From a virus (taxonomy: Duplodnaviria > Heunggongvirae > Uroviricota > Caudoviricetes): a stretch of DNA of 12,153 nt. The position numbers were made by a program, and so were the translations under genes. The stretch spans positions 1 to 12,153 of IMG/VR virus record IMGVR_UViG_2693429719_000002, one strand, 5' to 3'. A model generated the notes under the pieces. The model did no database searches and was not told the DNA's origin. It worked only from the letters and a program-made list of their open reading frames with translations. Of this stretch, positions 1 to 12,153 are shown in pieces; position 1 is the stretch's first letter, and each line of letters starts with the position of its first letter.

Positions 1-314
1 TGGGCGTAATTCCGGGAAAGCTGCTCATACGAGACACCCAGCCCGGCAGCGATATACCGCAGCAGTGACTGCTCAAACACGGAGTAGCCGTTATCCGTAT
101 CCTGAGCCGTCTGCAGGTTCAGTGAGTCACCCGGCATCAGGTGCGGTACTTTTGCGCCTCCCAGCCGGACCGGCGCTGCGGCGTAATACGCGGCAATTTC
201 ACCAATCCAGCCGGTCAGCCTTTCCCGCTGCTCCTGACTGTTCGCGCCCAGAATAAAATCCATCGCTGACTGCGTATCCAGCTCACTCTCAATGGTGGCG
301 GCATACATCGCCTT
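1..314 (-). CDS. B: Lambda-type portal protein, C-terminal portion (begins ...KAMYAATIESELDTQSAMDFILGAN...); separated from its N-terminal portion by the insert; runs off the window start
   Basis: Minus-strand translation from 314 downward is open to position 1 and reads as the direct continuation of the portal sequence that stops at the right junction (SAIVKA | MYAAT...). Matches my recollection of lambda gpB; not listed in the ORF track because it touches the window edge. Confidence 0.85.
302..314. other. attL junction: core ATCGCCTT (307..314) within CATACATCGCCTT
   Basis: Same 13-mer with one mismatch occurs at 11230..11242 (CATAAATCGCCTT). The identical 8 bp at 307..314 and 11235..11242 is the likely crossover core. 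Confidence 0.7.
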
Positions 315-388
315 TATGAAAAGACAGGAAAAAATAAAATTTAAAAACAGTACATTACGAATACTCAAACCTATCGTTTAAAGGAGTC

Positions 389-410
389 GCAATACACATT
401 GCAATACACG
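389..410 (+). repeat. Tandem GCAATACAC(A) repeats near attL, putative integrase arm-type binding sites
   Basis: gcaatacacattgcaatacacg at 389..410 is nearly identical to 11084..11105 near the other end, between int and attR. Confidence 0.5.
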
Positions 411-650
411 ATTATTTCTCAGATGAGCGGCAAGCATCCAACAACTATCCGTCATAAAGCTGGTGGATGATCACGGATAAACCGTTATGGGAATCCCCAT
501 ATCGGCATCATGCCCACCAGCGTGGCGCATTTTTTTAATTTCGCGGGTTTAAAAATTTGACGAGGCTGGCGGTCCCATAAGCAATGGGGTGTAGGGATTC
601 CGATCCCCCCGGGGTATTAAACACCCACCCTATTTAAATACCGTCTTTTT

Positions 651-700
651 TGTCACTGTGTGTCACTGGTTGTCACTCTCCGTCACAGTATGTCACCATA
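651..700 (+). repeat. Five phased 10-bp repeats (TGTCACnnnn x5)
   Basis: TGTCAC/CGTCAC at 651, 661, 671, 681 and 691, exactly 10 bp apart, just downstream of the last minus-strand gene. Confidence 0.6.
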
Positions 701-702
701 AG

Positions 703-987
703 TTAACGTCGTAACCGCTCCGGCTTCTTCCACTGGTACGTAATTTTTTCTTTCTCCTGGTACATCTGCACGCGGCGACGGTATGACAACATCTCCAGAA
801 CTCTGCTCCGTATGTCGCGCATATCCACGCCGTTAAGCTCAATACCGTCACGGCGCATCACCTCAGCCACCACACGCGCGTAATTTTCGGCTATCACGCT
901 ATCCGGCTGCGTGGCCTTCTGTTTGCCTGCTGCCTGGCTGGCTCCGGTAATGCAGCGAATCATTTTGAGCATTTCGGCTTCGGTCAT
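703..987 (-). CDS. Hypothetical protein (94 aa from ATG at 987; ORF-track version starts at TTG 1017)
   Basis: ORF in track; GGAGG lies 8 nt upstream of the ATG at 987. No family recognised. Confidence 0.5.
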   Translation of the reverse strand: MTEAEMLKMIRCITGASQAAGKQKATQPDSVIAENYARVVAEVMRRDGIELNGVDMRDIRSRVLEMLSYRRRVQMYQEKEKITYQWKKPERLRR

Positions 988-1024
988 TATCATGGCCTCC
1001 GTGGTGATGGAAAACAATGCCGTA

Positions 1025-1250
1025 ATTGTGGCGGGTCCTTCCTGGAAAATGAAACACCGGGGGTAGCCATACGCGCAATTCTTAACTGTTTATGAAAATT
1101 TTTCGGGAAAAGCCAGATCCGTTCTTCTTCTCTGTAACTCATTGTTTAATGGTAAAATCATCAAAAAAAGAAAGGATCTGACAGTGGTCATTTTGGGCCA
1201 AAAATGACGTTATCAGATCCTTTCTCAGTTTTGTTCAATAATTGCGCGGC
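1025..1250 (+). other. Second cos-like segment in plus orientation: lambda-cosB-like arm with three R-site-like elements carrying CAGATCC instead of CGTTTCC, and a diverged cosN-like segment
   Basis: Plus strand 1080..1250 aligns to the remembered lambda left arm (TTTATGAAAATTTT.CGG, CGTTCTTCTTC, AAAAGAAAGGA, GACAG.G, CCTTTCTC.GTTTTTGT). The position equivalent to cosN reads CGGGGGTAGCCATACGCGC, not GGGCGGCGACCT. Confidence 0.5.
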
Positions 1251-1252
1251 TG

Positions 1253-1780
1253 TCACTCACCTTTCTGTTGCCGTAATTTCTCCGGTACGTTTCCGGTTGT
1301 TTCCATCAGATAATCGGACATCATCAGCGGGATATTTTCATCAAGTTTTGCGCATGCGTTACAGGCTCTGATAACTTCTTTTTTCAGGCCATCCAGCATA
1401 GACGGCTTCATATCGGGAAACTTCCTTATCATGACAAGTGGCAGGCTATCCATGATTGAAGAAATCTGACTCGCCAATTTTGAAAGCACGTATATACAAA
1501 ACGCTGTATCAATAACGTCGCCGCGTTCACGCTCGTTTTTAAGCTCCTGCGCCTCTGCCTGTGCTGTCAGTAATCTGATCCTGACTCGTAGGAGTTCATC
1601 ATCATCAATCTCGCCCGTTTCGTTTGTAATCTGGCTGATTGCATTGTTAACCCGATTATCTATTACACTGGCGACATCATAAAACGCCTCGCGGCCCTTA
1701 CGCTCGACGGGAATCACTCCCCACTTATCGAACGCAGTGGCGCTTACACGGCAACTTTTTGCCATGTTTTTTTTGTTCAT
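1253..1780 (-). CDS. Terminase small subunit, lambda Nu1-like (conserved C-terminal part, divergent N-terminal winged-HTH)
   Basis: C-terminal two-thirds aligns to lambda Nu1 (LLTAQAEAQELKNERERGDVIDTAFCIYVLSKLASQISSIMDSLPL... vs [46 protein letters not shown]...). N-terminus is related but substituted in the putative recognition helix. Start set at the internal ATG (MNKKN, 1780) by alignment with Nu1 MEVNKK. Confidence 0.85.
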   Translation of the reverse strand: MNKKNMAKSCRVSATAFDKWGVIPVERKGREAFYDVASVIDNRVNNAISQITNETGEIDDDELLRVRIRLLTAQAEAQELKNERERGDVIDTAFCIYVLSKLASQISSIMDSLPLVMIRKFPDMKPSMLDGLKKEVIRACNACAKLDENIPLMMSDYLMETTGNVPEKLRQQKGE

Positions 1781-1894
1781 CAGGTGCAATTTCATTGATA
1801 CCACAACTTAATTACTGTTTCAGGTTGGTGTATTGATTGTACTTTTCTCTTATTATTCATGCAGATACAGCGAACAACAAAACCACCACCAGTC

Positions 1895-1990
1895 CCCTTA
1901 AAATGCTCATAAATAGCGAAAACCCGCGAGGTCGCCGCCCCGTAGCCTACCGGATCGCCGGAAAGGACCCGCCAGCCAGAACGGGCCCTA
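1895..1990 (-). other. Lambda-type cos site (cosQ-like sequence, cosN, first ~22 nt of the left arm) upstream of the Nu1-like gene
   Basis: Minus strand reads GGCGGGTCCTTTCCGGCGATCCGGTAGGCTACG GGGCGGCGACCT CGCGGGTTTTCGCTATTTATGA, near-identical to the remembered lambda right end, cosN and left end. Sequence then diverges from lambda cosB (1781..1894). Confidence 0.75.
1929..1940 (-). other. cosN cohesive-end sequence GGGCGGCGACCT (minus-strand reading)
   Basis: Plus strand shows AGGTCGCCGCCC, the exact reverse complement of the lambda 12-nt cohesive end. Confidence 0.75.
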
Positions 1991-1996
1991 ATTTCA

Positions 1997-2380
1997 TCAA
2001 CCAATCAACTTATAGCGACCATCCCGCGCATTGCGACGTACACGCTCAATCTTGAGGCATAGCGCCGCATCTGGCTTTTTTGGGACAGGTACGCGGCAAT
2101 ATTCAGAAGCTCGAGGAATATTGTTTATCCAGTCGATCACTTCACTTAAATACCAGGCCTTACGCCCTTCCGTAACCTGTACGCGTTCGGGGAACTCTCC
2201 GCGAGCCTCAAGGTTTAGCAATGTGCGACGGCTAAGGGTAGTAAGTTCCATCACCTGATTCATATCAACAAGGCGTTCACTTAAACGCATTTTGTCAGCA
2301 ATAGCCTTTAATTCCTCTACTGCTGGATCCGGATACATCATTTCGGCAATTGGCTTAAGGTCATTGTAATGATTCTGCAT
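1997..2380 (-). CDS. AlpA-family helix-turn-helix protein with a ~40-aa N-terminal extension (second AlpA-like gene of the island)
   Basis: Contains MNQVMELTTLSRRTLLNLEARGEFPERVQVTEGRKAWYLSEVIDWI, typical of AlpA/excisionase-type HTH. GGGGG RBS 5 nt upstream of ATG; starts 11 nt after the decoration gene stop. Confidence 0.65.
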   Translation of the reverse strand: MQNHYNDLKPIAEMMYPDPAVEELKAIADKMRLSERLVDMNQVMELTTLSRRTLLNLEARGEFPERVQVTEGRKAWYLSEVIDWINNIPRASEYCRVPVPKKPDAALCLKIERVRRNARDGRYKLIG

Positions 2381-2391
2381 TGTATCCCCCT

Positions 2392-2733
2392 TTACACACG
2401 AGCCAGCGGCTGAACAGAAATACCTGAGCCAACAAACGCGGCAACCTTTGCCGACAGTTCTTTTACAGACTCAGGCCAGTTCAGAGCATCAACATTTAAA
2501 ACACCTGTCTTATAAACCTGTGCCTGTGTTTTTTTCGCTGTGTCGATTTGTACAGCGGAAACATAAACCGCTTTACCTACGCTCGAACCATCCCATACCA
2601 CCAGTGCACCTGTTGCATCTTCCTGCATCAGTGGCGTAAATGCAGGAATTACCCCTTTATTAGCTGAAAATATCCCCAGCGTAGTCACCAGTGCTTCAGT
2701 GCCAGCCATGAGTTCAGTGTAATGAGTAGCCAT
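2392..2733 (-). CDS. Head decoration protein, lambda gpD-like
   Basis: Aligns to lambda gpD (TPLMQEDATGALVVWDGSS vs TPLMLDTSSRKLVAWDGTT; WPESVKELSAKVAAFVGSGISV vs [23 protein letters not shown]). Confidence 0.8.
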   Translation of the reverse strand: MATHYTELMAGTEALVTTLGIFSANKGVIPAFTPLMQEDATGALVVWDGSSVGKAVYVSAVQIDTAKKTQAQVYKTGVLNVDALNWPESVKELSAKVAAFVGSGISVQPLARV

Positions 2734-2742
2734 TGCTCCCCC

Positions 2743-3789
2743 TTAGCCAATGCGAACGGTAACAAAACGATTGATGCGGGCCGGTATTGGCTGTGGTGCT
2801 GAATGTGTCTGCACATATTCAATAGCCGGATCACCAGGCACAATATAGTTTTTCGGTGCAAGTTCGGCTTTAGTCAGCCCCATTCGGATTAGCTCCGGAT
2901 CCTGAATACCGCCATAGGCGACAATCCCCTGAAGAGCCGTATTGCCAAGCACCATCAAATCAGGATCAAGGAAATGTTTTTCTGTTCCGTCCTCGTCGGT
3001 ATAACGCCCGCTGTAAACAACAATCGCAACATCGCCCATATACCCTTTAAAACTCACCGAATCACCAAGGTCTTTAAGGGCCGTTTCCAGTTCGGAATTA
3101 GAACCACGACGGGTATCCAAAGCCTCTTTTATCGCTCTGAATGAACGGTATTTCTTCCATACATTACCACCCATAATGATGATATTAGTGACGCCCTCAC
3201 TAAATTCTGCGTAGCTCTCAATATCATCATTTGGATCAAAAGTTTCTTTATCCTTACCTGACCACTCAGTACCGCCAGACTGAGTGATGATATTTTGTGG
3301 TTTTATATTCCAGTCCAGCTCATAACGTTCAATACCATCGCCCTCAATGATATTTTTCCCCGTTGTGATTGCCTGAACAGCAAGCCATTCAATACGTGCA
3401 CGAATAGCTTTAGCCTGATTTACAATCGCCTGTTTAACTTTAATATTACGCGCCCCAAAAGCATTGTATTGCTCAGGTGACACACCAGCAGGGCGCACAG
3501 CTAACTTATTTGGATCAATGCTGCTTTTCGGCTTCATATAACCTGGACGAATTGTTTTTGATTCGTATCCCTCATCTCGTGAAACTTTACTGCCCACCAT
3601 AGGAGAGCAAAACGCCGCGATCGGGATATTTGGATCGTCGATCGTATCAAGAATAATGTCTCTCGATTCAAACATTACCGAGCGAGTGAAAAACAAACTG
3701 GTAAACAACGCATTTAATTTTTTTTGCACATCTTCAGCATTAGCCACCTGCACAAGCTGTGTAGGCGAATATAAATCAACCATACTCAT
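2743..3789 (-). CDS. Major capsid protein, lambda gpE family
   Basis: Strong similarity to lambda gpE (NIITQSGGTEWSGKDKETFDPNDDIESYA vs NITQSGGTEWSKRDKSTYDPTDDIEAYA; LDTRRGSNSELETALKDLG; GDVAIVVYSG; MVLGNT). Start trimmed to MSMVDLY (3789), AAGAGG RBS adjacent; the ATG at 3783 is an alternative. Confidence 0.9.
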   Translation of the reverse strand: MSMVDLYSPTQLVQVANAEDVQKKLNALFTSLFFTRSVMFESRDIILDTIDDPNIPIAAFCSPMVGSKVSRDEGYESKTIRPGYMKPKSSIDPNKLAVRPAGVSPEQYNAFGARNIKVKQAIVNQAKAIRARIEWLAVQAITTGKNIIEGDGIERYELDWNIKPQNIITQSGGTEWSGKDKETFDPNDDIESYAEFSEGVTNIIIMGGNVWKKYRSFRAIKEALDTRRGSNSELETALKDLGDSVSFKGYMGDVAIVVYSGRYTDEDGTEKHFLDPDLMVLGNTALQGIVAYGGIQDPELIRMGLTKAELAPKNYIVPGDPAIEYVQTHSAPQPIPARINRFVTVRIG

Positions 3790-3954
3790 CCTCTTTACAT
3801 TCATTACAAATAATTGTGAATATATTCTATTACCGATGTCTGCTATGCGAATACATGCAACCAAGTGCAATGTTGTATAAAATATGCCGTAACAACTTCA
3901 GTGCTGATAATTCGTGTTAATGTATTTACTTCCTTTGGTCGGGATTTATGTAGC

Positions 3955-3983
3955 ATGCCGGAAAATCTATTTTTTTCCGGCAT
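3955..3983 (+). terminator. Perfect 11-bp inverted repeat (ATGCCGGAAAA ... TTTTCCGGCAT) followed by CTTTTTGTTTG on the plus strand
   Basis: Read directly; lies in the SSB-capsid intergenic region. T-run follows only on the plus strand, antisense to the operon. Confidence 0.3.
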
Positions 3984-4000
3984 CTTTTTGTTTGCAGAAT

Positions 4001-4423
4001 TTAAAACGGTATATTATCGCCGTACGGATCATCATTCCCCGACTGTTGTTTTGCCCTGTTCAGTGCGTCAGTGGCCTGCCCCTGCTGGCCTTTTTTGCCG
4101 CCCGGTCGCGCCGTTCGCGCACTGATTACGCTGTCTGCGATAACCTGCCAGCCCCGCCGCGTTTCGCCGTTCTGGCCTGTCCACTGGCTTACCTGCATGT
4201 TACCCGCCACGCTCACCAGTTCGCCTTTGTGGTGTCTGGCCAGTGCGTCAGCCTGTCTGCCAAACGCCAGGACGGATAACCACATCGTCGCCGTTCCGTC
4301 ATCTGCCTGGCTGCACGGCAGGGGAACCGCCATACTCGCCATCGCCATTTGTGTCCCTTTGCTGGTGGTCTTTAACTGCGGGTCAGCCACCAGCCGCCCG
4401 TAAGCCGCTATCTGTGCTGTCAT
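4001..4423 (-). CDS. ssb: Single-stranded DNA-binding protein (SSB-like)
   Basis: OB-fold region similar to E. coli SSB (WLSVLAFGRQADALARH..GELVSVAGNMQVSQWTGQNGETR vs [43 protein letters not shown]). Acidic C-terminal tail ends ...DDPYGDNIPF, like DDDIPF. Confidence 0.8.
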   Translation of the reverse strand: MTAQIAAYGRLVADPQLKTTSKGTQMAMASMAVPLPCSQADDGTATMWLSVLAFGRQADALARHHKGELVSVAGNMQVSQWTGQNGETRRGWQVIADSVISARTARPGGKKGQQGQATDALNRAKQQSGNDDPYGDNIPF

Positions 4424-4665
4424 GCTGTCTGCTCTCCGGTTTTAACGTTGATGGTTGTCACCTGTTCCGCTTCGGCAATCTCCCGTTCTGTCAGCGTGGC
4501 AAAGTTTGCCGCCGTCGTGGCCATGAATGCGCTTATCAGTTCGGGATGTGCTTTCGCGTATCCCTCTCCCGCGTTGCGGTCGATGATTTTTATCGCCACC
4601 CTCAGCCAGTGTTCTGTCAAATCAAGGGCGTGAGATTGTGGTTTTTTTGCGTGCTTCGTTGTCAC
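4420..4665 (-). CDS. Hypothetical protein (81 aa, GTG start), translationally coupled to ssb
   Basis: GAGGT lies 7 nt upstream of the GTG; stop overlaps the ssb start (ATGA). No family recognised. Confidence 0.5.
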   Translation of the reverse strand: MTTKHAKKPQSHALDLTEHWLRVAIKIIDRNAGEGYAKAHPELISAFMATTAANFATLTEREIAEAEQVTTINVKTGEQTA

Positions 4666-4699
4666 AGGCTTTACCTCACAGCAATAAAATAAAATTTTT

Positions 4700-4945
4700 G
4701 CATTTTAACCCTTCACCTGTTCACCTTTTGCGATTTTCCCTTTTTATTCATGATGTTAAGGGGTGAACAGTTTCACAAAAACTATTCACCAACTGTTCAC
4801 CACTGTTCACCCTTAAAGCTCAATAAATAATCAAAAAGGTGAACAGTGAATAGTTTGGTGAACAGTTCACAAATAACTGTTCACCCTATAATGTACTGAT
4901 ATAAAAGACATTTATGACAGGGTGAACAGTGGTGAACAGTTATTC
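4700..4945. repeat. Iteron array (about 10 copies of GGTGAACAG / CTGTTCACC in both orientations) in an AT-rich region; putative origin of replication
   Basis: Copies at about 4716, 4762, 4782, 4792, 4803, 4838, 4857, 4878, 4921 and 4931, immediately downstream of the primase-helicase gene. Confidence 0.65.
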
Positions 4946-4952
4946 CATAAGT

Positions 4953-6758
4953 TTAATTTTTTCCATCGTCATTTGTGACCGATGTACATGATGGCATCCA
5001 GTCTTCTGAATCCTCTGTCAGGGTCACATTTGAACGCAAACCGTGCTTCGTTTTCCGTTTCATATACTCCCTGCCATATTCCGCCATTGCCCCCGGCATA
5101 TCTTTACCGAAGCGCGTCAGTGTTACAGGTTTACCGAATCCGTGTGCCCTCATATATGCCAGATAGGCGTGATAAAGATACCTGCGCGGACTGAACGGAA
5201 TAATTTCGGCATTACCCACTAACAGACCATCACACATTACCGACGACATGAGATAGCCGCAGAAGTCCACCAGCGAATCGCCCTCGCGTTTTATCACCAG
5301 AGCTTCTTCTGATTTCTGCTGCTCATACAGCAGGCGTTTAGCTTCGTCCTGGTCAGAAAAACGAGTAAGCAGGTGGCGAATCACAACCGCCAGCTCTCCT
5401 TCTATTTTTTCTGCCAGCATGGGGTCGCGTTCGTTTTCCGGTACAACCTCCGAAAAATTGAATATCACCCGACGACGTGAGATCCCCCCGCTGCGGTCAC
5501 TGAATGACATGGCGTTATTGTTCACCGCCAGCACGACCGCCTGAATGCGTGTTGAGTAGGGAGCTTTATGTTTCGGGTCAATTGCCACCTTGTCACCGCC
5601 TGTAATGGCCTTAATTCCTGCACCATCACCAGCGTAGCGGGTCATATCCGGCATGATAATCAGCGAAAAGCCAACCACTAACGCGCGTTCCCTGGCATCT
5701 TCCAGCGCCTTCATGCTTGCCGACACCGTGTTGGCCTTACCCGCCAGCATGGTGCAAATCTCCGCCATTACGCTTTTACCGCTTCCACCCGGCCCCGTTA
5801 CCTCAAGAAATAACTGCCAGTCGTATCGGTTCGCCAGCACCATGAATAACGCCGCCAGTACGCGATCCGCTTTACGGTCATTCTCTGCCACCGAACGGCG
5901 CAACCATTTCCAGAAATTCGGCGCATGCGTTGCCAGCGTTTCCCCCTCTGCTGGTGGGCTGAACGGTAATTCACTGGCAATTAACAGCCAGTCGTTTTTG
6001 TCATGCTCCCGAAAATCGCCTGTCCGGGTATCAAAAACACCGTTACTGAATCCAATCAGGTTACGGGCGGTATTTCCCATTACGGGCAAACTTAACTTCA
6101 TGGTATCGACCGCCGATTTGATGGCGTTCTGCGAATAACTGATCTCCGCATCAATAAAAATCTGCGCCATAGCCCGCTGTAACTCTTTATCCTGTACCGG
6201 CTCCCATACAACGCCGTTGTAGTGGTGAACTGTGTCAGAGTCCGCATTGATTGCCAGTTCACCGCCATAATGGGCCAGGAGAACTTCGCCGCGCTGGCTT
6301 GCTCCCATCTGGTTAAGCGCCAGTGGTGCGGCGCTGTCTTCTGTTTTTTTCTTAACAGGAAGCTGAATAACCAGACCATCAGAAAGATTCTGGCGCTCAC
6401 GCTCCAGATATTCGCGCCACTCCTCCCGCTTCTGGCTGTGCATTCCCTCAGGGTAATAATTCGCATCCCGTACACCTGCCGCCGCCAGCTTTTGCCCGAT
6501 GGCATTAATATTTGACGGCTTGATGTGGCCTGCCTTGTACAGCCGGACACAATAGCGACCATCGTCGATAATTTTCAGGTCTGCCAGTTCGTCAAGCTGG
6601 CTGTCTCCCAGCCATACAGGCGGAACATTGTCACCAGCAAGTCGCCCGTCCTGCTCCTGCCATTGTTTCGCGTGCGCCCAGGCATCACTACCCGCAAAAA
6701 TAATGACTTCGGTCATTTTGTCGTGCGGCTGTTTTTTTAAGTTCGGTGCCAGTTTCAT
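4953..6758 (-). CDS. Primase-helicase / replication initiator with P-loop NTPase domain
   Basis: 601-aa ORF with Walker A motif (EVTGPGGSGKSVMAEICTML) and an N-terminal primase-like region. Usual position for a satellite replication protein, followed by iterons. Confidence 0.85.
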   Translation of the reverse strand: MKLAPNLKKQPHDKMTEVIIFAGSDAWAHAKQWQEQDGRLAGDNVPPVWLGDSQLDELADLKIIDDGRYCVRLYKAGHIKPSNINAIGQKLAAAGVRDANYYPEGMHSQKREEWREYLERERQNLSDGLVIQLPVKKKTEDSAAPLALNQMGASQRGEVLLAHYGGELAINADSDTVHHYNGVVWEPVQDKELQRAMAQIFIDAEISYSQNAIKSAVDTMKLSLPVMGNTARNLIGFSNGVFDTRTGDFREHDKNDWLLIASELPFSPPAEGETLATHAPNFWKWLRRSVAENDRKADRVLAALFMVLANRYDWQLFLEVTGPGGSGKSVMAEICTMLAGKANTVSASMKALEDARERALVVGFSLIIMPDMTRYAGDGAGIKAITGGDKVAIDPKHKAPYSTRIQAVVLAVNNNAMSFSDRSGGISRRRVIFNFSEVVPENERDPMLAEKIEGELAVVIRHLLTRFSDQDEAKRLLYEQQKSEEALVIKREGDSLVDFCGYLMSSVMCDGLLVGNAEIIPFSPRRYLYHAYLAYMRAHGFGKPVTLTRFGKDMPGAMAEYGREYMKRKTKHGLRSNVTLTEDSEDWMPSCTSVTNDDGKN

Positions 6759-7069
6759 TTTGCCTTTCCCCGTTCACGAATAATTTCACGTACTGCCTTA
6801 ATGCGTTCCATACCTGTAACGCGCATGATTCTGTCGATGTCGCTTAAGTTCGCTGGTGGTGCTTTGCTTACCAGGGTGAATTCACTCTCAAAACGCATAT
6901 GTGACGACACGCAGGGATGCGCATAACCTTCGCGGATATAAGTCACGCGAAAATCGTCAACGGTTTTTATCGTTATTCGTCCGCCGTATTTATCTTTGAA
7001 AATATCGTCGGGGCGGATTTCAGGCCGAGCGGGGCCGCTGGCAGTAAAGCCAGAATTTTTCTTTTTCAT
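6755..7069 (-). CDS. Hypothetical protein (104 aa), translationally coupled to the primase-helicase gene
   Basis: ORF in track; stop overlaps the primase start (ATGA). No family recognised. Confidence 0.55.
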   Translation of the reverse strand: MKKKNSGFTASGPARPEIRPDDIFKDKYGGRITIKTVDDFRVTYIREGYAHPCVSSHMRFESEFTLVSKAPPANLSDIDRIMRVTGMERIKAVREIIRERGKAK

Positions 7070-7075
7070 GTTTTT

Positions 7076-7294
7076 TTACTCCAGAGGCAGCTTTTTAGCG
7101 GCGAGCTCAATATCAGATGTCAGAGAAACCTGTGTATTTGCCAGGTCTAACAACAAAGAAATAAGAATTTCCTCTCTGCTATCGGATTTATCGGTGCTAA
7201 GGCTGTTCATCCACATATTGACGACTTCCCTGATTTTTTTCGCGGAGTGCAGGGCTTCAAATGCCAGGTCTTCAATATCACGTTTATTTCGCAT
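7076..7294 (-). CDS. Hypothetical protein (72 aa from ATG at 7294)
   Basis: ORF in track; start moved to the internal ATG (MRNKRD) preceded by a GGGGG RBS. Confidence 0.45.
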   Translation of the reverse strand: MRNKRDIEDLAFEALHSAKKIREVVNMWMNSLSTDKSDSREEILISLLLDLANTQVSLTSDIELAAKKLPLE

Positions 7295-7529
7295 AATCGC
7301 CCCCACCATTTTCACAATCAACAATCAGGATGGCTTTAGCCTCATTCAGCGCCATATCAGCGGTAAGCTGCACATATGCCAGCGAATGCGGGATTATCGC
7401 CCCTGTATATTCCGGCTCTCTGGTAATGTGTTTTTCTGCGGTTGCTGCCGTGCATGAAATATCAATCAGCGCGTCCATCAGCGTTCTGATGGCTTCGCCT
7501 GCTGCGTCCGGCGTGTTTTTATTGCACAT
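7284..7529 (-). CDS. Hypothetical protein (81 aa)
   Basis: ORF in track; start overlaps the stop of the upstream 68-aa gene; GGGGG RBS upstream. Confidence 0.45.
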   Translation of the reverse strand: MCNKNTPDAAGEAIRTLMDALIDISCTAATAEKHITREPEYTGAIIPHSLAYVQLTADMALNEAKAILIVDCENGGGDYAK

Positions 7530-7725
7530 GGCGCACCCCCTGACGAATACGGGCGGCGAATACCATCACACAGCCATCAGGAGATTGCTGGCGTGCTTCC
7601 TGTTCGCTGGTGGCCTCGATGGTAATCACGCGCGGCTGTGCCGTGCTCAGGGCGATAAAACGCCAGATGTATTTATTCAGGTTGTACGAGTCCCGCCCTT
7701 GCGGGTGTGTGGTATGATTTAACAT
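7522..7725 (-). CDS. Hypothetical protein (68 aa), first gene of the leftward operon
   Basis: Corresponds to the last 68 codons of the 411-aa track ORF 7519..8754. ATG at 7725 has GAGG 5 nt upstream; the upstream part of that long ORF is judged spurious. Confidence 0.5.
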
Positions 7726-7823
7726 AGCTACCTCGATACTTCTGCTATCGTTGGTGGTTAGAAGCCCCGTTACTGCTCCTACAGTGCGGGGTTTCGTCGT
7801 TTCTGCACCTTGCATTAACAAGG

Positions 7824-7900
7824 TGTAAGTAACTTTATTTATAGGTGGCTTACATGTCAATGCTTTTATGTAAGACTTTTTATGTGTATATTGTCTTACA
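7824..7900. promoter_or_regulatory. Divergent promoter region with two ~31-bp operator-like elements (TGTAAG-N19-CTTACA)
   Basis: TGTAAG at 7824 and 7869, CTTACA at 7849 and 7895. A TTGACA -35 for the leftward operon (reverse complement of 7855..7860) abuts the first element. Confidence 0.5.
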
Positions 7901-7921
7901 CTTTCATTGAGAGGATTACAG

Positions 7922-8227
7922 ATGGCTACAGGTTCAAAAAACGCAAAATCACAATCACTGACAGCTCGGATCCCGCATGATGTTATTGAAGGCATGGAAT
8001 CCGTAAAACTGGACGGTGAAAGCAACGCCGGATTCATCGTAACCGCCATGCGCGGTGAAATCGCCCGCCGCCAGGCAGAAGGAAGCGGAGAAAACCTCCT
8101 GGTTTCTTCGCTCGATGCACTGGCGCAGGTGGAAAAAATCGGAGTCAAAGCAGCCGAGGAGATCGGGCAACTCATCACCGTCGCGCGTGAAGAACTCCAG
8201 CGTCGCAAGGCCAAAGAGCAGGAGTAA
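7922..8227 (+). CDS. Small regulatory protein, possibly ribbon-helix-helix type (101 aa)
   Basis: ATG at 7922 with GAGAGGA RBS 6 nt upstream. N-terminal SLTARIPHDVIEGMESV resembles an RHH strand-helix motif (weak, by eye). Sits next to the operator-like repeats. Confidence 0.5.
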   Translation: MATGSKNAKSQSLTARIPHDVIEGMESVKLDGESNAGFIVTAMRGEIARRQAEGSGENLLVSSLDALAQVEKIGVKAAEEIGQLITVAREELQRRKAKEQE

Positions 8228-8284
8228 CCATCACCAGCGCCGTGGTGCGACGAACTGTGGCGCACAGGGTTACAGGTATCTACG

Positions 8285-8482
8285 ATGACTGACAAATCAT
8301 TAAAGAAATTATCCTCATCCAGGAAAAAACAACGCAAAAACGCGGTAAGCGAACAAGAACAGGAAAGATTCGCGCCATGTGCGTTTGTCCTTGAGAAGTT
8401 CCTTAACGAGTACAGGCGCACAAAAATGGGATCGCATACCTGGAAAACATCGCAGCATGGCGATGCTAAAGAGCAGGAATAG
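8285..8482 (+). CDS. Hypothetical small basic protein (65 aa)
   Basis: ORF in track; weak RBS. Its last residues and stop context duplicate those of the upstream gene (AKEQE). Confidence 0.35.
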   Translation: MTDKSLKKLSSSRKKQRKNAVSEQEQERFAPCAFVLEKFLNEYRRTKMGSHTWKTSQHGDAKEQE

Positions 8483-8585
8483 CCCACCAGCAAGCCAGCA
8501 CACTGATCACATTGCCAACCGGATGTAATCACGGCATAGTAATCAGCGCTCATGCGTTGGGGATAACGCGCAATTAGTGTTGAAG

Positions 8586-8613
8586 GGCCACCGTAGCGGG
8601 TGGCCTTTGTTTT
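8586..8613 (+). terminator. Rho-independent terminator (GGCCACC-GTAGC-GGGTGGCC + TTTGTTTT)
   Basis: GC-rich hairpin followed by a T-run, about 100 bp downstream of the plus-strand genes. Confidence 0.6.
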
Positions 8614-8666
8614 GCCTGTTATCCGGCAATTGTGGCGCTTCGTCACACGGTTGATATAATTCCCCT

Positions 8667-8740
8667 GCACTGATCCATTTTTTTCGCAGCAGGTTAATTG
8701 TTCGCAAGGGCGCTCCGGCAACGGGGCGCTTTTTGTTTTT
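8667..8740 (+). ncRNA. Candidate small RNA (~75 nt) between an extended -10 promoter and a strong terminator
   Basis: TGATATAAT at 8652..8660; terminator at 8710..8740; no ORF in the interval. Confidence 0.3.
8710..8740 (+). terminator. Rho-independent terminator (8-bp stem with GCAA loop + TTTTTGTTTTT)
   Basis: GCGCTCCG-GCAA-CGGGGCGC followed by an 11-nt T-rich run. Confidence 0.65.
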
Positions 8741-8898
8741 ACCCACCAGCACAATAAAAATCTTCATTTTCCATTTTTGTAAAATTTCATGCTTTCCGGA
8801 TGGCTGGCCATATGTCATTTTTTAGCAGAAGATTTTGCCTTGCTGGTGGATAGCTTCCCGGTCAACACGATGTACCGTATAATCAGCACCGCGTGTGG

Positions 8899-9477
8899 TT
8901 ACTGAATACGCTCACCAAAGTAAAACTCAGGCTGATATTCACGTATCAGCCTTTTTTCTTCTTCCTCCAGCTCACGCTTTTTGCGCTTACATGCCTGTAG
9001 CTCCCTCCCCTTCTCGCTGGCACTTATCCGGTATTGCTCTTTGCGGCGGGAAAAATCCTGTAATGCGCCCCACGGGATACCATAAGCCCCCGTTTTTCTG
9101 ATACCCGGTATCACATTTCTGAATACCCAATTACTGAAACTATGAGCAAATGTGCCAGGCGTCATTGCTTTGCGGCTACGGGCTATTAGTTTGTAGAAAC
9201 CTGACTCAGAGATAATGCTCATATTCTGATTTCCTCCGGGGGTGTAAGTTAAATTTACTCCCTTTTCATCATCATCAAGCATCTGCAACGCCGTACGCGA
9301 ATTGGTCAGTTCCAGCGCAGCGCAGACATCCTTTGCAACAAACCACGGATCGCCGTTCAGATACACCACGCGAACGTTCACACCATCAAAGCGCAGAACG
9401 ACGAGATCACGAATATCGCAGAATTTTTTCACTGGACGAGCGTACCCCTTGCCCGTCACGGCAATATTTTTATTCAT
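8899..9477 (-). CDS. Bro-N domain protein (putative antirepressor-like)
   Basis: Bro-N signature read by eye: VRVVYLNGDPWFVAKDVCAALEL...SESGFYKLIARSRKAM...FSNWVFRNVIPGIRKTGAY. Confidence 0.8.
   Translation of the reverse strand: MNKNIAVTGKGYARPVKKFCDIRDLVVLRFDGVNVRVVYLNGDPWFVAKDVCAALELTNSRTALQMLDDDEKGVNLTYTPGGNQNMSIISESGFYKLIARSRKAMTPGTFAHSFSNWVFRNVIPGIRKTGAYGIPWGALQDFSRRKEQYRISASEKGRELQACKRKKRELEEEEKRLIREYQPEFYFGERIQ
8929..8958 (+). terminator. Plus-strand hairpin + T6 inside the 3' end of the Bro-N coding region (antisense)
   Basis: AGGCTGATA-TTCACG-TATCAGCCT followed by TTTTTT; a TATAAT at 8878..8883 lies upstream. Confidence 0.4.
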
Positions 9478-9494
9478 CGCGTTTTGACCTTATA

Positions 9495-9520
9495 GACAAA
9501 AAACCCCTCGTAATGAGGGG
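9495..9520 (-). terminator. Rho-independent terminator downstream of alpA (CCCCTC-ATTAC-GAGGGG + TTTTTTG on the minus strand)
   Basis: Hairpin and U-tract begin 14 nt after the alpA stop. Confidence 0.6.
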
Positions 9521-9533
9521 CGTTATTTACTGG

Positions 9534-9791
9534 TTATTGCTGTTTTGTTTTTCCAGGTTTCCATCCAGGATGCCACTCACCACGGATCCACGCCTGAACC
9601 TCTGAAAGTCGATAGCCTGCCGCACGTTCGCCGATCTTGATACGTCGCGGGAATTTACCTGCCTGCTCCATTTTCCAGCGTGTTGAGTTTGCCAGCGTGG
9701 TAAGTGCTATGCATTCTTTTTCACGAATGAACCGATCAATGTCCTTCATTGCGCGCAAATCGTTTTCATCCACAAGAGAATAAATTGTCAT
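9534..9791 (-). CDS. alpA: AlpA-family transcriptional regulator / excisionase-like protein
   Basis: 85-aa HTH protein directly downstream of int (start 1 nt after the int stop); GAGGTGG RBS. Confidence 0.8.
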   Translation of the reverse strand: MTIYSLVDENDLRAMKDIDRFIREKECIALTTLANSTRWKMEQAGKFPRRIKIGERAAGYRLSEVQAWIRGEWHPGWKPGKTKQQ

Positions 9792-9792
9792 A

Positions 9793-11034
9793 TCACACCA
9801 CCTCTTTATTAAGCTCGATAACGTTGTTGTTAAATCCTGCTATCGTATTAAGGTAATTAACCCACATATTAAGCACCTCAAGTTTTTTCTTTATATGCCT
9901 GCTTTTATTGTAAACACCAGCAACCCCTTTCACTTTATGACCCAAAAGAAGTTCGACAATATAAGGATCCGCCCCCATATCATTAAGCATTGTGGAAAAT
10001 GTGCGCCTGAAATCATGTATGCACCACAAGCCATTAGTATCATGACCAAGACGCCTGCATATTCTGTTTGCAGCCCCTGTTATTGTCGCCCTTTGCAAAG
10101 CACAACCGACAACATAACCGCGATTCTTTGTTTCTGCGTAAAGATTAACGATCCATTGTTTTATACCGTCAGGAACGGGCCTTACTATGGCCTCACCGTT
10201 TTTGCTGTGCTCTTTTGGGACTGTCCATACCCAGTTTTTTAAATCCCATTCTTCCCAGGTGGATAACCTCGCCTCCTGCTGTCGACAACCAAACGCCAGG
10301 CATATCACCATAATTCTTCGGTTATGTATCGATGAGAGAGTAAGCAAATTATTTCCATAAGCATACGACCATACATCAGCAGTTTCATTGATGCTAAGAA
10401 CGCGATCCCGTATACCGGACGAGCGGCCTACATAACTTACATTAATGTCTCCAAATGGATCGCAAGCGATATATTGCCTGACGCGACAAAACCGCAACGC
10501 CTGTTTAATATCAAGAAAAATTGCACCAGACATAACAGGCGCATTTTTTTTAATCCTGTCAAAGACGGTAAGCCATGTGTGTAATTTGCACTGTTCTATG
10601 GCCATATCGCCGATATAGGGGAATATATGCTTTTCAAATCGTTTTATTAAATATTCATGCTCTTTTCTGGCTGTTGTGGCGTGATTGTCGTACCAGTAAA
10701 ACAGCGCATCCCTTACGGTCACTGGTTGCATAGTTTTTTCGGCAGCAAGTTTTATTTGCCTGCGGGGGTCCAGATTTTCAGCCAGCCATTCACGGCACTG
10801 ATCACGCATGCGCCTGGCAGTTGCAAGAGACATGTCAGGATAGCGACCAAGTGTAAGCCATACCGGAGGGGATTTCCTGCCACCAAGACGATAGTAAAAA
10901 ACAAAGCTTATCCCCCCGACCATGCTTACACGCACAGACAGCCCGCGACCATCCGCTATTGTTTTTTGTTTGTCCTGTCGTTTTCCGGCAAGACTCTTTA
11001 ACAGTTTGTCGCTGAGTTTGTTTTCAATAGCCAT
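9793..11034 (-). CDS. int: Tyrosine-type site-specific integrase (P4-like)
   Basis: 413 aa; C-terminal catalytic motifs HDFRRTF ... LLGHKVKGVAGVYNKS (H-x-x-R ... Y); sits next to the element end. Confidence 0.95.
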   Translation of the reverse strand: MAIENKLSDKLLKSLAGKRQDKQKTIADGRGLSVRVSMVGGISFVFYYRLGGRKSPPVWLTLGRYPDMSLATARRMRDQCREWLAENLDPRRQIKLAAEKTMQPVTVRDALFYWYDNHATTARKEHEYLIKRFEKHIFPYIGDMAIEQCKLHTWLTVFDRIKKNAPVMSGAIFLDIKQALRFCRVRQYIACDPFGDINVSYVGRSSGIRDRVLSINETADVWSYAYGNNLLTLSSIHNRRIMVICLAFGCRQQEARLSTWEEWDLKNWVWTVPKEHSKNGEAIVRPVPDGIKQWIVNLYAETKNRGYVVGCALQRATITGAANRICRRLGHDTNGLWCIHDFRRTFSTMLNDMGADPYIVELLLGHKVKGVAGVYNKSRHIKKKLEVLNMWVNYLNTIAGFNNNVIELNKEVV

Positions 11035-11052
11035 TAACAGCCCTCAAGAGAT

Positions 11053-11106
11053 TTGCAATACACACCCATCCCGATCGCCAATTTGCAATACACATTGCAA
11101 TACACA
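11053..11106 (+). repeat. Three TTGCAATACACA repeats between int and attR, putative arm-type integrase sites / int promoter region
   Basis: Copies at 11053, 11083 and 11095; the last two form the same 22-mer found at 389..410. Confidence 0.5.
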
Positions 11107-11182
11107 AAACCGCGAAAAACCGGAATAGTGGTGAACGGTCATCAAAAGTATGGAAAACGACATTCCAGACGCAGCAAGGGTT

Positions 11183-12064
11183 TTAGTGGAGTTGGCGAAC
11201 GATGCGGACAACTACGGTGAGATGATAGACATAAATCGCCTTCACAATGGCGCTCTGCAGCTGCGTGTTCTGCAGCGTGTCGAGCATCTTCATCTGCTCC
11301 ATCACGCTGTAAAACACATTTGCACCGCGGGTCTGCCCGTCCTCCACGGGTTCAAAAACGTGAATGAACGAGGTGCGCCCGCCGGGTAACTCACGGGGCA
11401 TCCATGTCCATTTCTGCGGCATCCAGCCAGGATACCCGTCCTCGCTGACGTAATATCCCAGCGCCGCGCCGCTGTCATTAATCTGCACACCGGCACGGCA
11501 GTTCCGGCTGTCGCCGGTATTGTTCGGGTTGCTGATACGCTTCGGGCTGACCATCCGGAACTGTGTCCGGAACAGTCGCGAGGGACTGGTATCCCAGGTG
11601 GCCTGAACGAACAGTTCACCGTTAAAGGCGTGCATGGCCACACCTTCCCGAATCATCATGGTAAACGTGCGTTTTCGCTCAACGTCAATGCAGCAGCAGT
11701 CATCCTCGGCAAACTCTTTCCATGCCGCTTCAACCTCGCGGGAAAAGGCACGGGCTTCTTCCTCCCCGATGCCCAGATAGCGCCAGCTTGGGCGATGACT
11801 GAGCCGGAAAAAAGATCCGACGATATGATCCTGATGCAGCTGGATGGCGTTGGCGGCATAGCCGTTATTGCGTACCAGATCGTCTGCGCGGGCATTGCCA
11901 CGGGTAAAGTTGGGCAACAGGGCTGCATCCACACTTTCACCCGGTGGGTTCCACGCCCGCAACTGCCCTCCAAATCCGCTGCCACCGCCGTGATAACCGG
12001 CATATTCGCGCAGCGATGTCATGCCGTCCGGCCCCAGAAGGGTGGGAATGGTGGACGTTTTCAT
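11183..12064 (-). CDS. B: Lambda-type portal protein, N-terminal portion; ends in 17 element-derived codons after ...SAIVKA
   Basis: 293-aa ORF starting [34 protein letters not shown], near-identical to remembered lambda gpB. Homology stops at the core, then reads [17 protein letters not shown] and terminates. Confidence 0.9.
11230..11242. other. attR junction: core ATCGCCTT (11235..11242) within CATAAATCGCCTT
   Basis: Direct repeat of 302..314 with one mismatch at the fifth base. Confidence 0.7.
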
Positions 12065-12153
12065 ACATAAAATCCTGCAGGTCCCCTGCGTCGCTGTGTC
12101 ATGCCGGTCTGCACTTCCAGCTCCGCAATGTATTTTTTCAGGTCAGACACGGA
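12061..12153 (-). CDS. W: Head-tail joining protein W, C-terminal part (runs off the window end); stop overlaps the portal start
   Basis: Minus-strand translation ...[30 protein letters not shown] matches the remembered lambda gpW C-terminus. Has the lambda-like GTATGA overlap with the B start. Confidence 0.8.

Follow-up and report, generated by a model that had tools for sequence, protein, structure and literature searches.

The sequence considered here is a stretch of 12,153 nucleotides from a virus of the Caudoviricetes (IMG/VR record IMGVR_UViG_2693429719_000002, positions 1 to 12,153; hereafter the window), and it contains a helper-embedded phage-inducible chromosomal island (HE-PICI), a satellite inserted in a late gene of a presumed helper prophage. 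On the plus strand, between the regulatory genes of this satellite and its bro gene, lies a unit of promoter and terminator at 8652-8741, designated sRNA-B, which is very probably a real, separate and previously undescribed small RNA (sRNA) gene of PICI and HE-PICI satellites. It stands opposite a long minus-strand reading frame that leads towards the replication operon, and we tentatively propose that sRNA-B acts as a cis-antisense brake on transcription from alpA and bro into that operon.

A first-pass annotation of the window, made from the letters alone, had placed two candidate small RNAs here, framed by three plus-strand terminators. The signals on which it relied are all present, namely the extended -10 element, the three terminators, and a TATAAT preceding a hairpin and T6 run that lie antisense within the 3' end of bro. 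The promoter and terminator features of the region are as follows.

8652-8660, plus strand: extended -10 element of sRNA-B, TGATATAAT, with the sole TGNTATAAT in the 12.2 kb window
~8667-8741, plus strand: predicted sRNA-B transcript (candidate 1), ~75 nt, its 5' end placed from the -10 element
8706-8741, plus strand: terminator 2 (stem 8706-8733, then TGTTTTT), from the terminator scan
8583-8615, plus strand: terminator 1 (stem 8583-8608, then GTTTTG), closing the ylcI-orf65 operon and, if it exists, sRNA-A; from the terminator scan
8929-8958, plus strand: terminator 3, a hairpin (stem 8929-8952, then TTTTTT) in the bro 3' end, from the terminator scan and folding
8512-8540, plus strand: promoter-like site TTGCCA-17-CATAGT of the putative sRNA-A (~8547-8615, 65-70 nt)
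8878-8883, plus strand: TATAAT of candidate 2 (best -35 TTCCCG, 3/6)

A single -10 element with a single hairpin is not beyond chance, and at least one TGNTATAAT occurs in 73 of 200 shuffles of the window. TATAAT is found three times against 6.6 expected, two of the three being the plus-strand sites at 8655 and 8878, and terminator-like sites number 11 in the surrounding 2 kb, against 2.2 +/- 1.5 in shuffles. Folding gives z = -2.3 for the 75-nt sRNA-B (8667-8741) and z = -3.8 for a 69-nt candidate 2, while the reverse complements of both fold less well or at chance level. The predicted fold leaves the 5' half of sRNA-B open or weakly paired; behind it come the terminator hairpin, GC-rich and 12 bp long, and a U5-G-U5 tail.

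It is the comparative data, rather than the lone -10 and hairpin, that raise sRNA-B above chance. The module 8548-8741 is conserved, being found by BLAST in 554-625 of 5,426 complete Escherichia coli genomes (~10%), and similarity to most relatives stops at query positions 190-194, corresponding to 8737-8741 of the window and the end of the T-run. Relatives were sampled in three ways: with a pattern for the 3' end from which the -10 element was left out, with a pattern for the 5' part, and through the neighbouring YlcI-like protein. The 3'-end pattern retrieved 109 viral contigs, and TGATATAAT is invariant in all type-1 copies while the adjoining bases differ. Types 2-4 have the last ~45 nt in common with type 1 and unrelated 5' halves; their -10 elements read TATAAT, TAAAAT or TACAAT, with a -35 of TTCAC(T/A) and 17-nt spacers of unrelated sequence. 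Type 5 joins the sRNA-A promoter (TTGCCC-17-TATCAT) to the 3' half of sRNA-B. Across the types, the distance from the -10 element to the terminator stays at 39-42 nt. Covariation across homologous islands, suggested in the first-pass annotation as a check, was found in terminator 2: the 5'-pattern retrieval yielded two alternative stems, GGGCGCTCC-GGCAAC-GGGGCGC and GGCGGCTCC-TTATC-GGGGCCGC, and one variant carries a compensatory double change from C-G to A-T, support that is modest given the low diversity. No conserved 5' hairpin was supported, since RNAalifold on the ungapped alignment recovered part of the terminator only.

Among 64 loci gathered through the YlcI-like protein, 29 carry the sRNA-B unit; it is thus acquired or lost whole. 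Carrier strains include ETEC1749, STEC313 and E. coli 042. The range of the unit is confined to Escherichia: in 185,579 species-representative genomes the 5' pattern had no match and the 3' pattern matched Escherichia ruysiae only, while deposited phage genomes gave no match and plasmids a single one. Because promoter, length and terminator are conserved apart from the flanks, and because the unit moves as a block, we regard sRNA-B as an independent transcription unit, and the proposal of an sRNA gene of ~75 nt in this position is thereby upheld.

The same observations bear on an alternative, that there is no functional RNA here and the three hairpins are stacked fail-safe terminators shielding bro, alpA and int from convergent ylcI transcription, the -10-like hexamers being tolerated or weak promoters. 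In relatives the position of terminator 1 is occupied by at least five unrelated stems, all of them with a T-run behind; terminator 3 persists with no promoter in front of it; over half of the relatives have terminator 1 alone; and a single TGNTATAAT in 12 kb can readily arise by chance. Against this, the perfect extended -10 element does not change although its surroundings do, types 2-4 retain both -35 and -10 elements around unrelated spacers, and the fixed distance from -10 to terminator belongs to a unit that moves whole. A purely terminating role is made less likely by this conservation of promoters, and we judge it improbable.

Two further features adjoin the unit. An imperfect palindrome, TGTGGCG-CTT-CGTCACA (8631-8647), overlaps the -35 region of the promoter of sRNA-B. 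Several relatives have it in perfect form, and L013-type loci carry a different dyad, TGGTC-ATTTC-GACCA, in its place; it could be an operator or a hairpin. Chi sites (GCTGGTGG) are abundant in the window, with 11 copies against 0.4 expected from shuffles; those nearby lie at 8484-8491 (minus), 8743-8750 (minus), 8842-8849 (plus) and 7606-7613 (plus), and two copies fall exactly at module junctions, one directly after the orf65 stop and the other directly after the T-run of terminator 2. These Chi-marked junctions are points where relatives change to different flanks.

The function that we propose for sRNA-B derives from what lies opposite it. The genes and frame concerned are the following.

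7519-8763, minus strand: frame sharing the phase of the Icd-like gene and free of stops (the other two minus-strand frames have 27 and 17)
7519-7725, minus strand: Icd-like (Kil-like) gene (NCBIfam phage_ICD_like, E = 1e-19)
7922-8227, plus strand: YlcI/YnfO-family gene, first in a plus-strand cassette (NCBIfam YlcI_YnfO_N, E = 7e-20)
8285-8482, plus strand: orf65, second in the cassette, an open reading frame (ORF) whose homologue is a hypothetical protein in related records; Pfam and NCBIfam searches gave no match
8899-9477, minus strand: bro, a Bro-N domain gene (Pfam Bro-N, E = 2e-19)
9534-9791, minus strand: alpA (Pfam Phage_AlpA, E = 5e-14)

The frame in phase with icd is open for 415 codons, from 8763 down to 7519, and both sRNA-A and sRNA-B are antisense to it. 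On its way it crosses, in antisense, the ylcI-like gene and orf65 (which are in different phases), both terminators, sRNA-B and the divergent promoter region. It is likewise open in ~55 of 69 distinct intervals between alpA or bro and icd, which measure 604-1789 nt and in which the other frames hold 10-40 stops each; in L035 it has 0 stops against 39 and 40 over 1789 nt and is open for 650 codons across four plus-strand genes. Cys, Ser and Arg abound in its translation, and between types the amino acids are not conserved, openness alone being kept. Several groups of relatives place a start, or a fusion, close to sRNA-B. Where alpA is adjacent, GAGG-N9-ATG stands 16 nt upstream of an A-rich stretch complementary to the sRNA-B U-tail (ATG AAC ATA ACA AAA AGC GCC); where ant is adjacent, GGAGG-N9-ATG (GGAGGAAAACAGCC-ATG) precedes that stretch by 34 nt; and in relatives with a truncated bro, three different truncations are fused in phase to the leader frame. 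In loci that lack sRNA-B, a similar Shine-Dalgarno sequence and ATG adjoin terminator 1.

On this geometry we consider it possible, at a level of confidence somewhat short of even, that sRNA-B is a cis-antisense brake on read-through from alpA and bro into the icd-primase replication operon. The plus-strand cassette, comprising the YlcI-like gene, orf65, the possible sRNA-A and sRNA-B, would lie wholly inside the minus-strand leader frame, and sRNA-B would pair with the 5'-proximal part of that frame on transcripts arriving from int-alpA-bro or from the late operon of the helper; similar pairing could be made by the ylcI operon transcript through its 3' end and, if real, by sRNA-A. Such pairing would hinder translation of the leader, and less leader translation would mean less read-through into icd and primase, either through Rho-type polarity or because the duplex is cleaved. 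The satellite would thus be kept silent by the immunity logic of phage P4, executed through an unrelated RNA on the opposite strand. Beyond the geometry we infer every step, including RNA accumulation and the regulatory outcome, and minus-strand transcription and translation from the stop-free frame together with the P4 precedent.

The immunity region of P4 comprises the promoters PLL and PLE, the nested genes eta and kil, the CI RNA, the sequences seqA and seqC, and the Rho-dependent terminator timm. Forti and colleagues reportedly found in 1999 that translation of the P4 leader frame allows transcripts from upstream to read through. The eta ORF of P4 (8168-8812) covers the isrK (seqA) and C4 (CI) matches, overlaps the alpA-like ORF88 at the latter's 3' end and has the Kil peptide as its last part; the composition of its translation is equally odd, and there too the frame is kept open rather than conserved in sequence. 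A constitutive promoter lies inside eta, transcripts end early through interactions of CI and seqA, Kil is a truncated nested form of Eta, and translation of eta prevents termination (Tommasini, Mageeney and Williams 2023; PMC10111431). P4 and the window have in common an alpA-like gene, a long leader frame ending in a Kil- or Icd-like peptide and a primase operon, and P4 and the present satellite family have in common a leader frame that stays open while crossing regulatory RNA genes and an internal promoter.

The first-pass annotation had likened the region to P4-type elements, which use small RNAs for immunity. That comparison holds for position, in the Bro or immunity zone with an eta/kil-like leader, and for logic; it fails for the RNA family. 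The CI RNA is co-directional with its leader transcript, is processed from it, and belongs to Rfam C4 alongside an IsrK-like seqA, none of which applies to sRNA-B, which lies on the opposite strand with its own promoter, an intrinsic terminator and a YlcI-like gene alongside. That sRNA-B might nevertheless be a diverged member of the family of P4 CI and P1 C4 immunity RNAs is suggested by its place, the zone in which PICIs and P4 carry CI and seqA (PMC10111431). This is scarcely likely: neither C4 nor IsrK was matched in 7400-9700 at E values up to 10, nor at the gathering score in 14 related loci (RF01695 and RF01394 respectively), and sRNA-B runs opposite to the operon from its own promoter and is not processed from a leader. 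P4 itself, as positive control, scored 74.9 bits for C4 and 60.8 bits for isrK. In the published survey of HE-PICIs, immunity RNAs are reported as C4 and isrK matches in some elements only, and small RNAs on the opposite strand are not mentioned, the terms "sRNA" and "antisense" having no occurrence (PMC10111431).

More generally, no Rfam family was matched by sRNA-B, either over the window at the gathering score or in 7400-9700 at the relaxed threshold. Chance-level matches were discarded, comprising ctRNA_p42d and isrD on terminator 1 and a sub-threshold STnc310 near 9481 on the plus strand. Esr41, AgvB and AsxR, searched through Rfam, gave no match to sRNA-B, and probe sequences for the Pas sRNAs (PasA-D) matched at best with 8-10 mismatches over 23-25 positions. 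It is not among the entries of the EcOnc and Pas catalogues, and a literature search with sequence strings returned nothing for it. An identification of the locus with EcOnc10/11/12 (Tree et al.), guessed from spacing, was rejected, the Sakai site lying after Rz in Sp10 and not in a satellite.

The openness of the icd-phase frame could instead mean that the conservation is that of a minus-strand protein, either a 91-aa ORF at 8543-8818 or a long "Icd-like" product of the annotation pipeline PGAP. PGAP does call proteins across the module, a 266-aa "Icd-like" protein and a 286-aa hypothetical protein in L004 and L006, and the frame is free of stops; most gene callers give 67-117 aa for it. The 91-aa ORF, however, has no family match and its N-terminal part is not common to relatives with other flanks, the long frame is kept open while its sequence is not kept, as in P4 eta, and only on the plus strand do T-runs come after the hairpins. 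We consider protein coding a very improbable source of the conservation. A plus-strand ORF of ~37 aa likewise found no support.

Antisense control of a leader ORF or start region in cis has well-known forms, among them CopA on tap-repA in plasmid R1, RNA-OUT in IS10, sar in P22 and c4-icd-ant in P1. Like these RNAs, sRNA-B is predicted to be short, with a constitutive promoter and a terminator hairpin, and to be fully complementary to the 5'-proximal region of an ORF governing downstream genes; the immI regions of P22 and P1 also set a small DNA-binding protein and an antirepressor gene next to the RNA, as at sRNA-B. Unlike them, it has no recognisable kissing loop, and its target frame extends over hundreds of codons and overlaps whole genes on the opposite strand.

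Several observations weigh against a cis-antisense brake. The loop of the sRNA-B terminator is GCAA and offers no obvious recognition loop. The unit is missing from 35 of the 64 related loci and is hence dispensable for the element. In the window itself the leader frame has no Shine-Dalgarno sequence with ATG near sRNA-B, its only candidate being a TTG at 8754 without a Shine-Dalgarno sequence, and it stands ~135 nt apart from the bro stop; in 19 loci the frame is closed before the terminator. A start codon beside a terminator may reflect tight packing of convergent units alone. Finally, a conserved 3' half with variable 5' halves also fits trans-acting anti-sRNAs of prophages.

The last point leads to the rival that we rank first, a trans-acting sRNA of the Hfq type. 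Under it, sRNA-B would be an autonomous "moron", an Hfq-dependent regulator or sponge acting on host or helper RNAs through its variable 5' half, and its antisense position would be incidental. An own promoter, a strong terminator and the U5-G-U5 tail accord with this, as do presence and absence among otherwise similar elements and the resemblance to prophage anti-sRNAs of the AgvB/AsxR type, in which the 3' half is conserved and the 5' halves vary (Tree et al. 2014). In company with AgvB, AsxR, Esr41 and PasA-D, sRNA-B is a short, moron-like unit of a mobile element with a Rho-independent terminator; it differs from them in having no sequence or covariance match to any, and in residing in the Bro zone of a satellite rather than the lysis or late region of a lambdoid phage. 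The C/A-rich 5' parts of types 3-5 are predicted to form duplexes with the GcvB R1 region that are somewhat better than those of shuffles, 11 of 300 shuffles being as good, which is a weak lead. Exact complementarity of at least 9 nt within the element, however, showed nothing consistent across types, duplex energies against all start regions of the element were no better than those of shuffles, and the 5' types of sRNA-B showed no association with the hairpin types of the icd leader. Furthermore, the 5' part varies even in close relatives, which is unusual for a seed, and none of the known RNAs searched gave a match. Action in trans is a real possibility that we think unlikely, and the cis-antisense brake is the reading that we consider best supported.

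Taken to its fullest extent, that reading would have the co-directional CI and seqA of P4 replaced, in E. coli PICIs and HE-PICIs, by an opposite-strand cassette of a YlcI-like gene and one or two antisense RNAs, which would decide whether transcription from upstream, including the helper's late transcription, is translated through the leader to the replication genes; the 5' halves of types 1-5 would then be immunity specificities between co-resident satellites. So broad a scheme is speculative and, as a whole, rather unlikely. Among the small and antisense RNAs of mobile elements, there is a moderate chance that sRNA-B represents a variant immunity design. How PICIs of Gram-negative hosts are silenced and sense their helpers is poorly understood, with AlpA and, for some elements, CI-like RNAs as the factors implicated in published work; an unannotated sRNA gene present in about one tenth of complete E. 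coli genomes, opposite a leader frame like that of P4 eta, supplies a testable hypothesis. If action in trans were true, sRNA-B would add a new family to the mobile-element sRNAs by which host regulation is rewired in pathogenic E. coli. For annotation, long "Icd-like" proteins across such regions are better regarded as leader frames than as conventional proteins, and short RNA genes are liable to be overlooked in the Bro zones of satellites.

Upstream of sRNA-B, the putative sRNA-A is possible. Its -35 element TTGCC(C/A) and 17-nt spacing are kept around different spacers, and the -10 element of some relatives is better than that of the window (TATGAT, TATCAT); the promoter site is missing from L005-type loci, so that support is moderate. 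Candidate 2, which would be an sRNA of ~68-69 nt (~8890-8958) antisense to the 3' end of bro, is doubtful, and here the earlier proposal fares poorly. Its -35 element is poor, and its TATAAT is conserved only within a group of few, hardly varying relatives, in which changes at 8890-8898 break the predicted 5' hairpin. In O157:H7-type elements, the bro stop and the terminator 3 hairpin come straight after terminator 1, and there is no candidate 2 promoter. This hairpin, which lies 28-54 nt within the bro 3' end, in the last 20 codons, travels with bro, since it is present with or without a preceding promoter, and its best interpretation is as a back-up terminator acting on transcription of the plus strand.

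The element that carries these features is an HE-PICI, a satellite of ~10.7 kb recognised from Pfam matches, repeats and ORFs, and set within the portal gene of the presumed helper prophage. A 21-bp direct repeat, GCAATACACATTGCAATACAC, at 389-409 and 11085-11105 supplies the att repeats that bound it. The insertion interrupts a lambda-type portal gene (Phage_portal_2), whose N-terminal half lies at 11183-12064 and the remainder at 1-690, on the minus strand, and the satellite is co-oriented with the late operon of the presumed helper. The class is described with four zones, Integration, Bro, Replication and Late (PMC10111431), and we assign the element to it because int with AlpA, a Bro zone, a primase and SSB zone, a late zone, att repeats and insertion in a helper late gene are all present. 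Like the published HE-PICIs, it has its integrase beside the disrupted late gene and carries AlpA, Bro-N, primase and captured capsid genes; the sRNA-B region falls in the Bro zone. Among relatives, some interrupt a terminase or head gene of another prophage and others lie beside tRNA-Pro or roxA. The remaining genes of the satellite are listed below.

9793-11034, minus strand: integrase, int (Pfam)
6755-7069, minus strand: DUF4222 (family match)
4953-6758, minus strand: D5-type primase (family match)
4001-4423, minus strand: SSB (family match)
2743-3870, minus strand: capsid E (family match)
2392-2733, minus strand: decoration protein D (family match)
1997-2380, minus strand: second AlpA-like protein (family match)
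1253-1804, minus strand: Nu1-like protein (family match)

Other signals are spread over the satellite and its relatives. The Rfam int-alpA RNA motif (RF02996) occurs between int and the next gene in two relatives (L008 4689-4756 and L025 13210-13277), and is not in the window, where alpA abuts int. A gene for an RNA chaperone of the ProQ/FinO family lies beside SSB in one related, tRNA-Pro-integrated PICI (L004, 1-450); the window element has none. Between alpA and bro, a GC-rich hairpin followed by TTTTTT (9503-9521, minus strand; z = -3.1) is placed such that int-alpA transcripts would stop there unless antiterminated. An inverted repeat, GTAAGAC...GTCTTAC, at 7871-7899 overlaps the likely promoter of the YlcI-like gene, and L004 has a different palindrome pair (ATGGTACGTACCA twice) in its place, which suggests type-specific operators.

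Finally, the leader of icd, 100 nt on the minus strand (7726-7826), separates the icd start from a TTGACA-17-TAAAGT promoter (7860-7832); it has strong structure (z = -3.8) and no C4 or IsrK match. Among 16 variants, compensatory changes affect 7 of the 10 pairs in its middle hairpin (7762-7794); a third hairpin does not vary and pairs with some of the icd Shine-Dalgarno sequence. The leader may be a co-directional regulatory RNA or attenuator of this satellite family.

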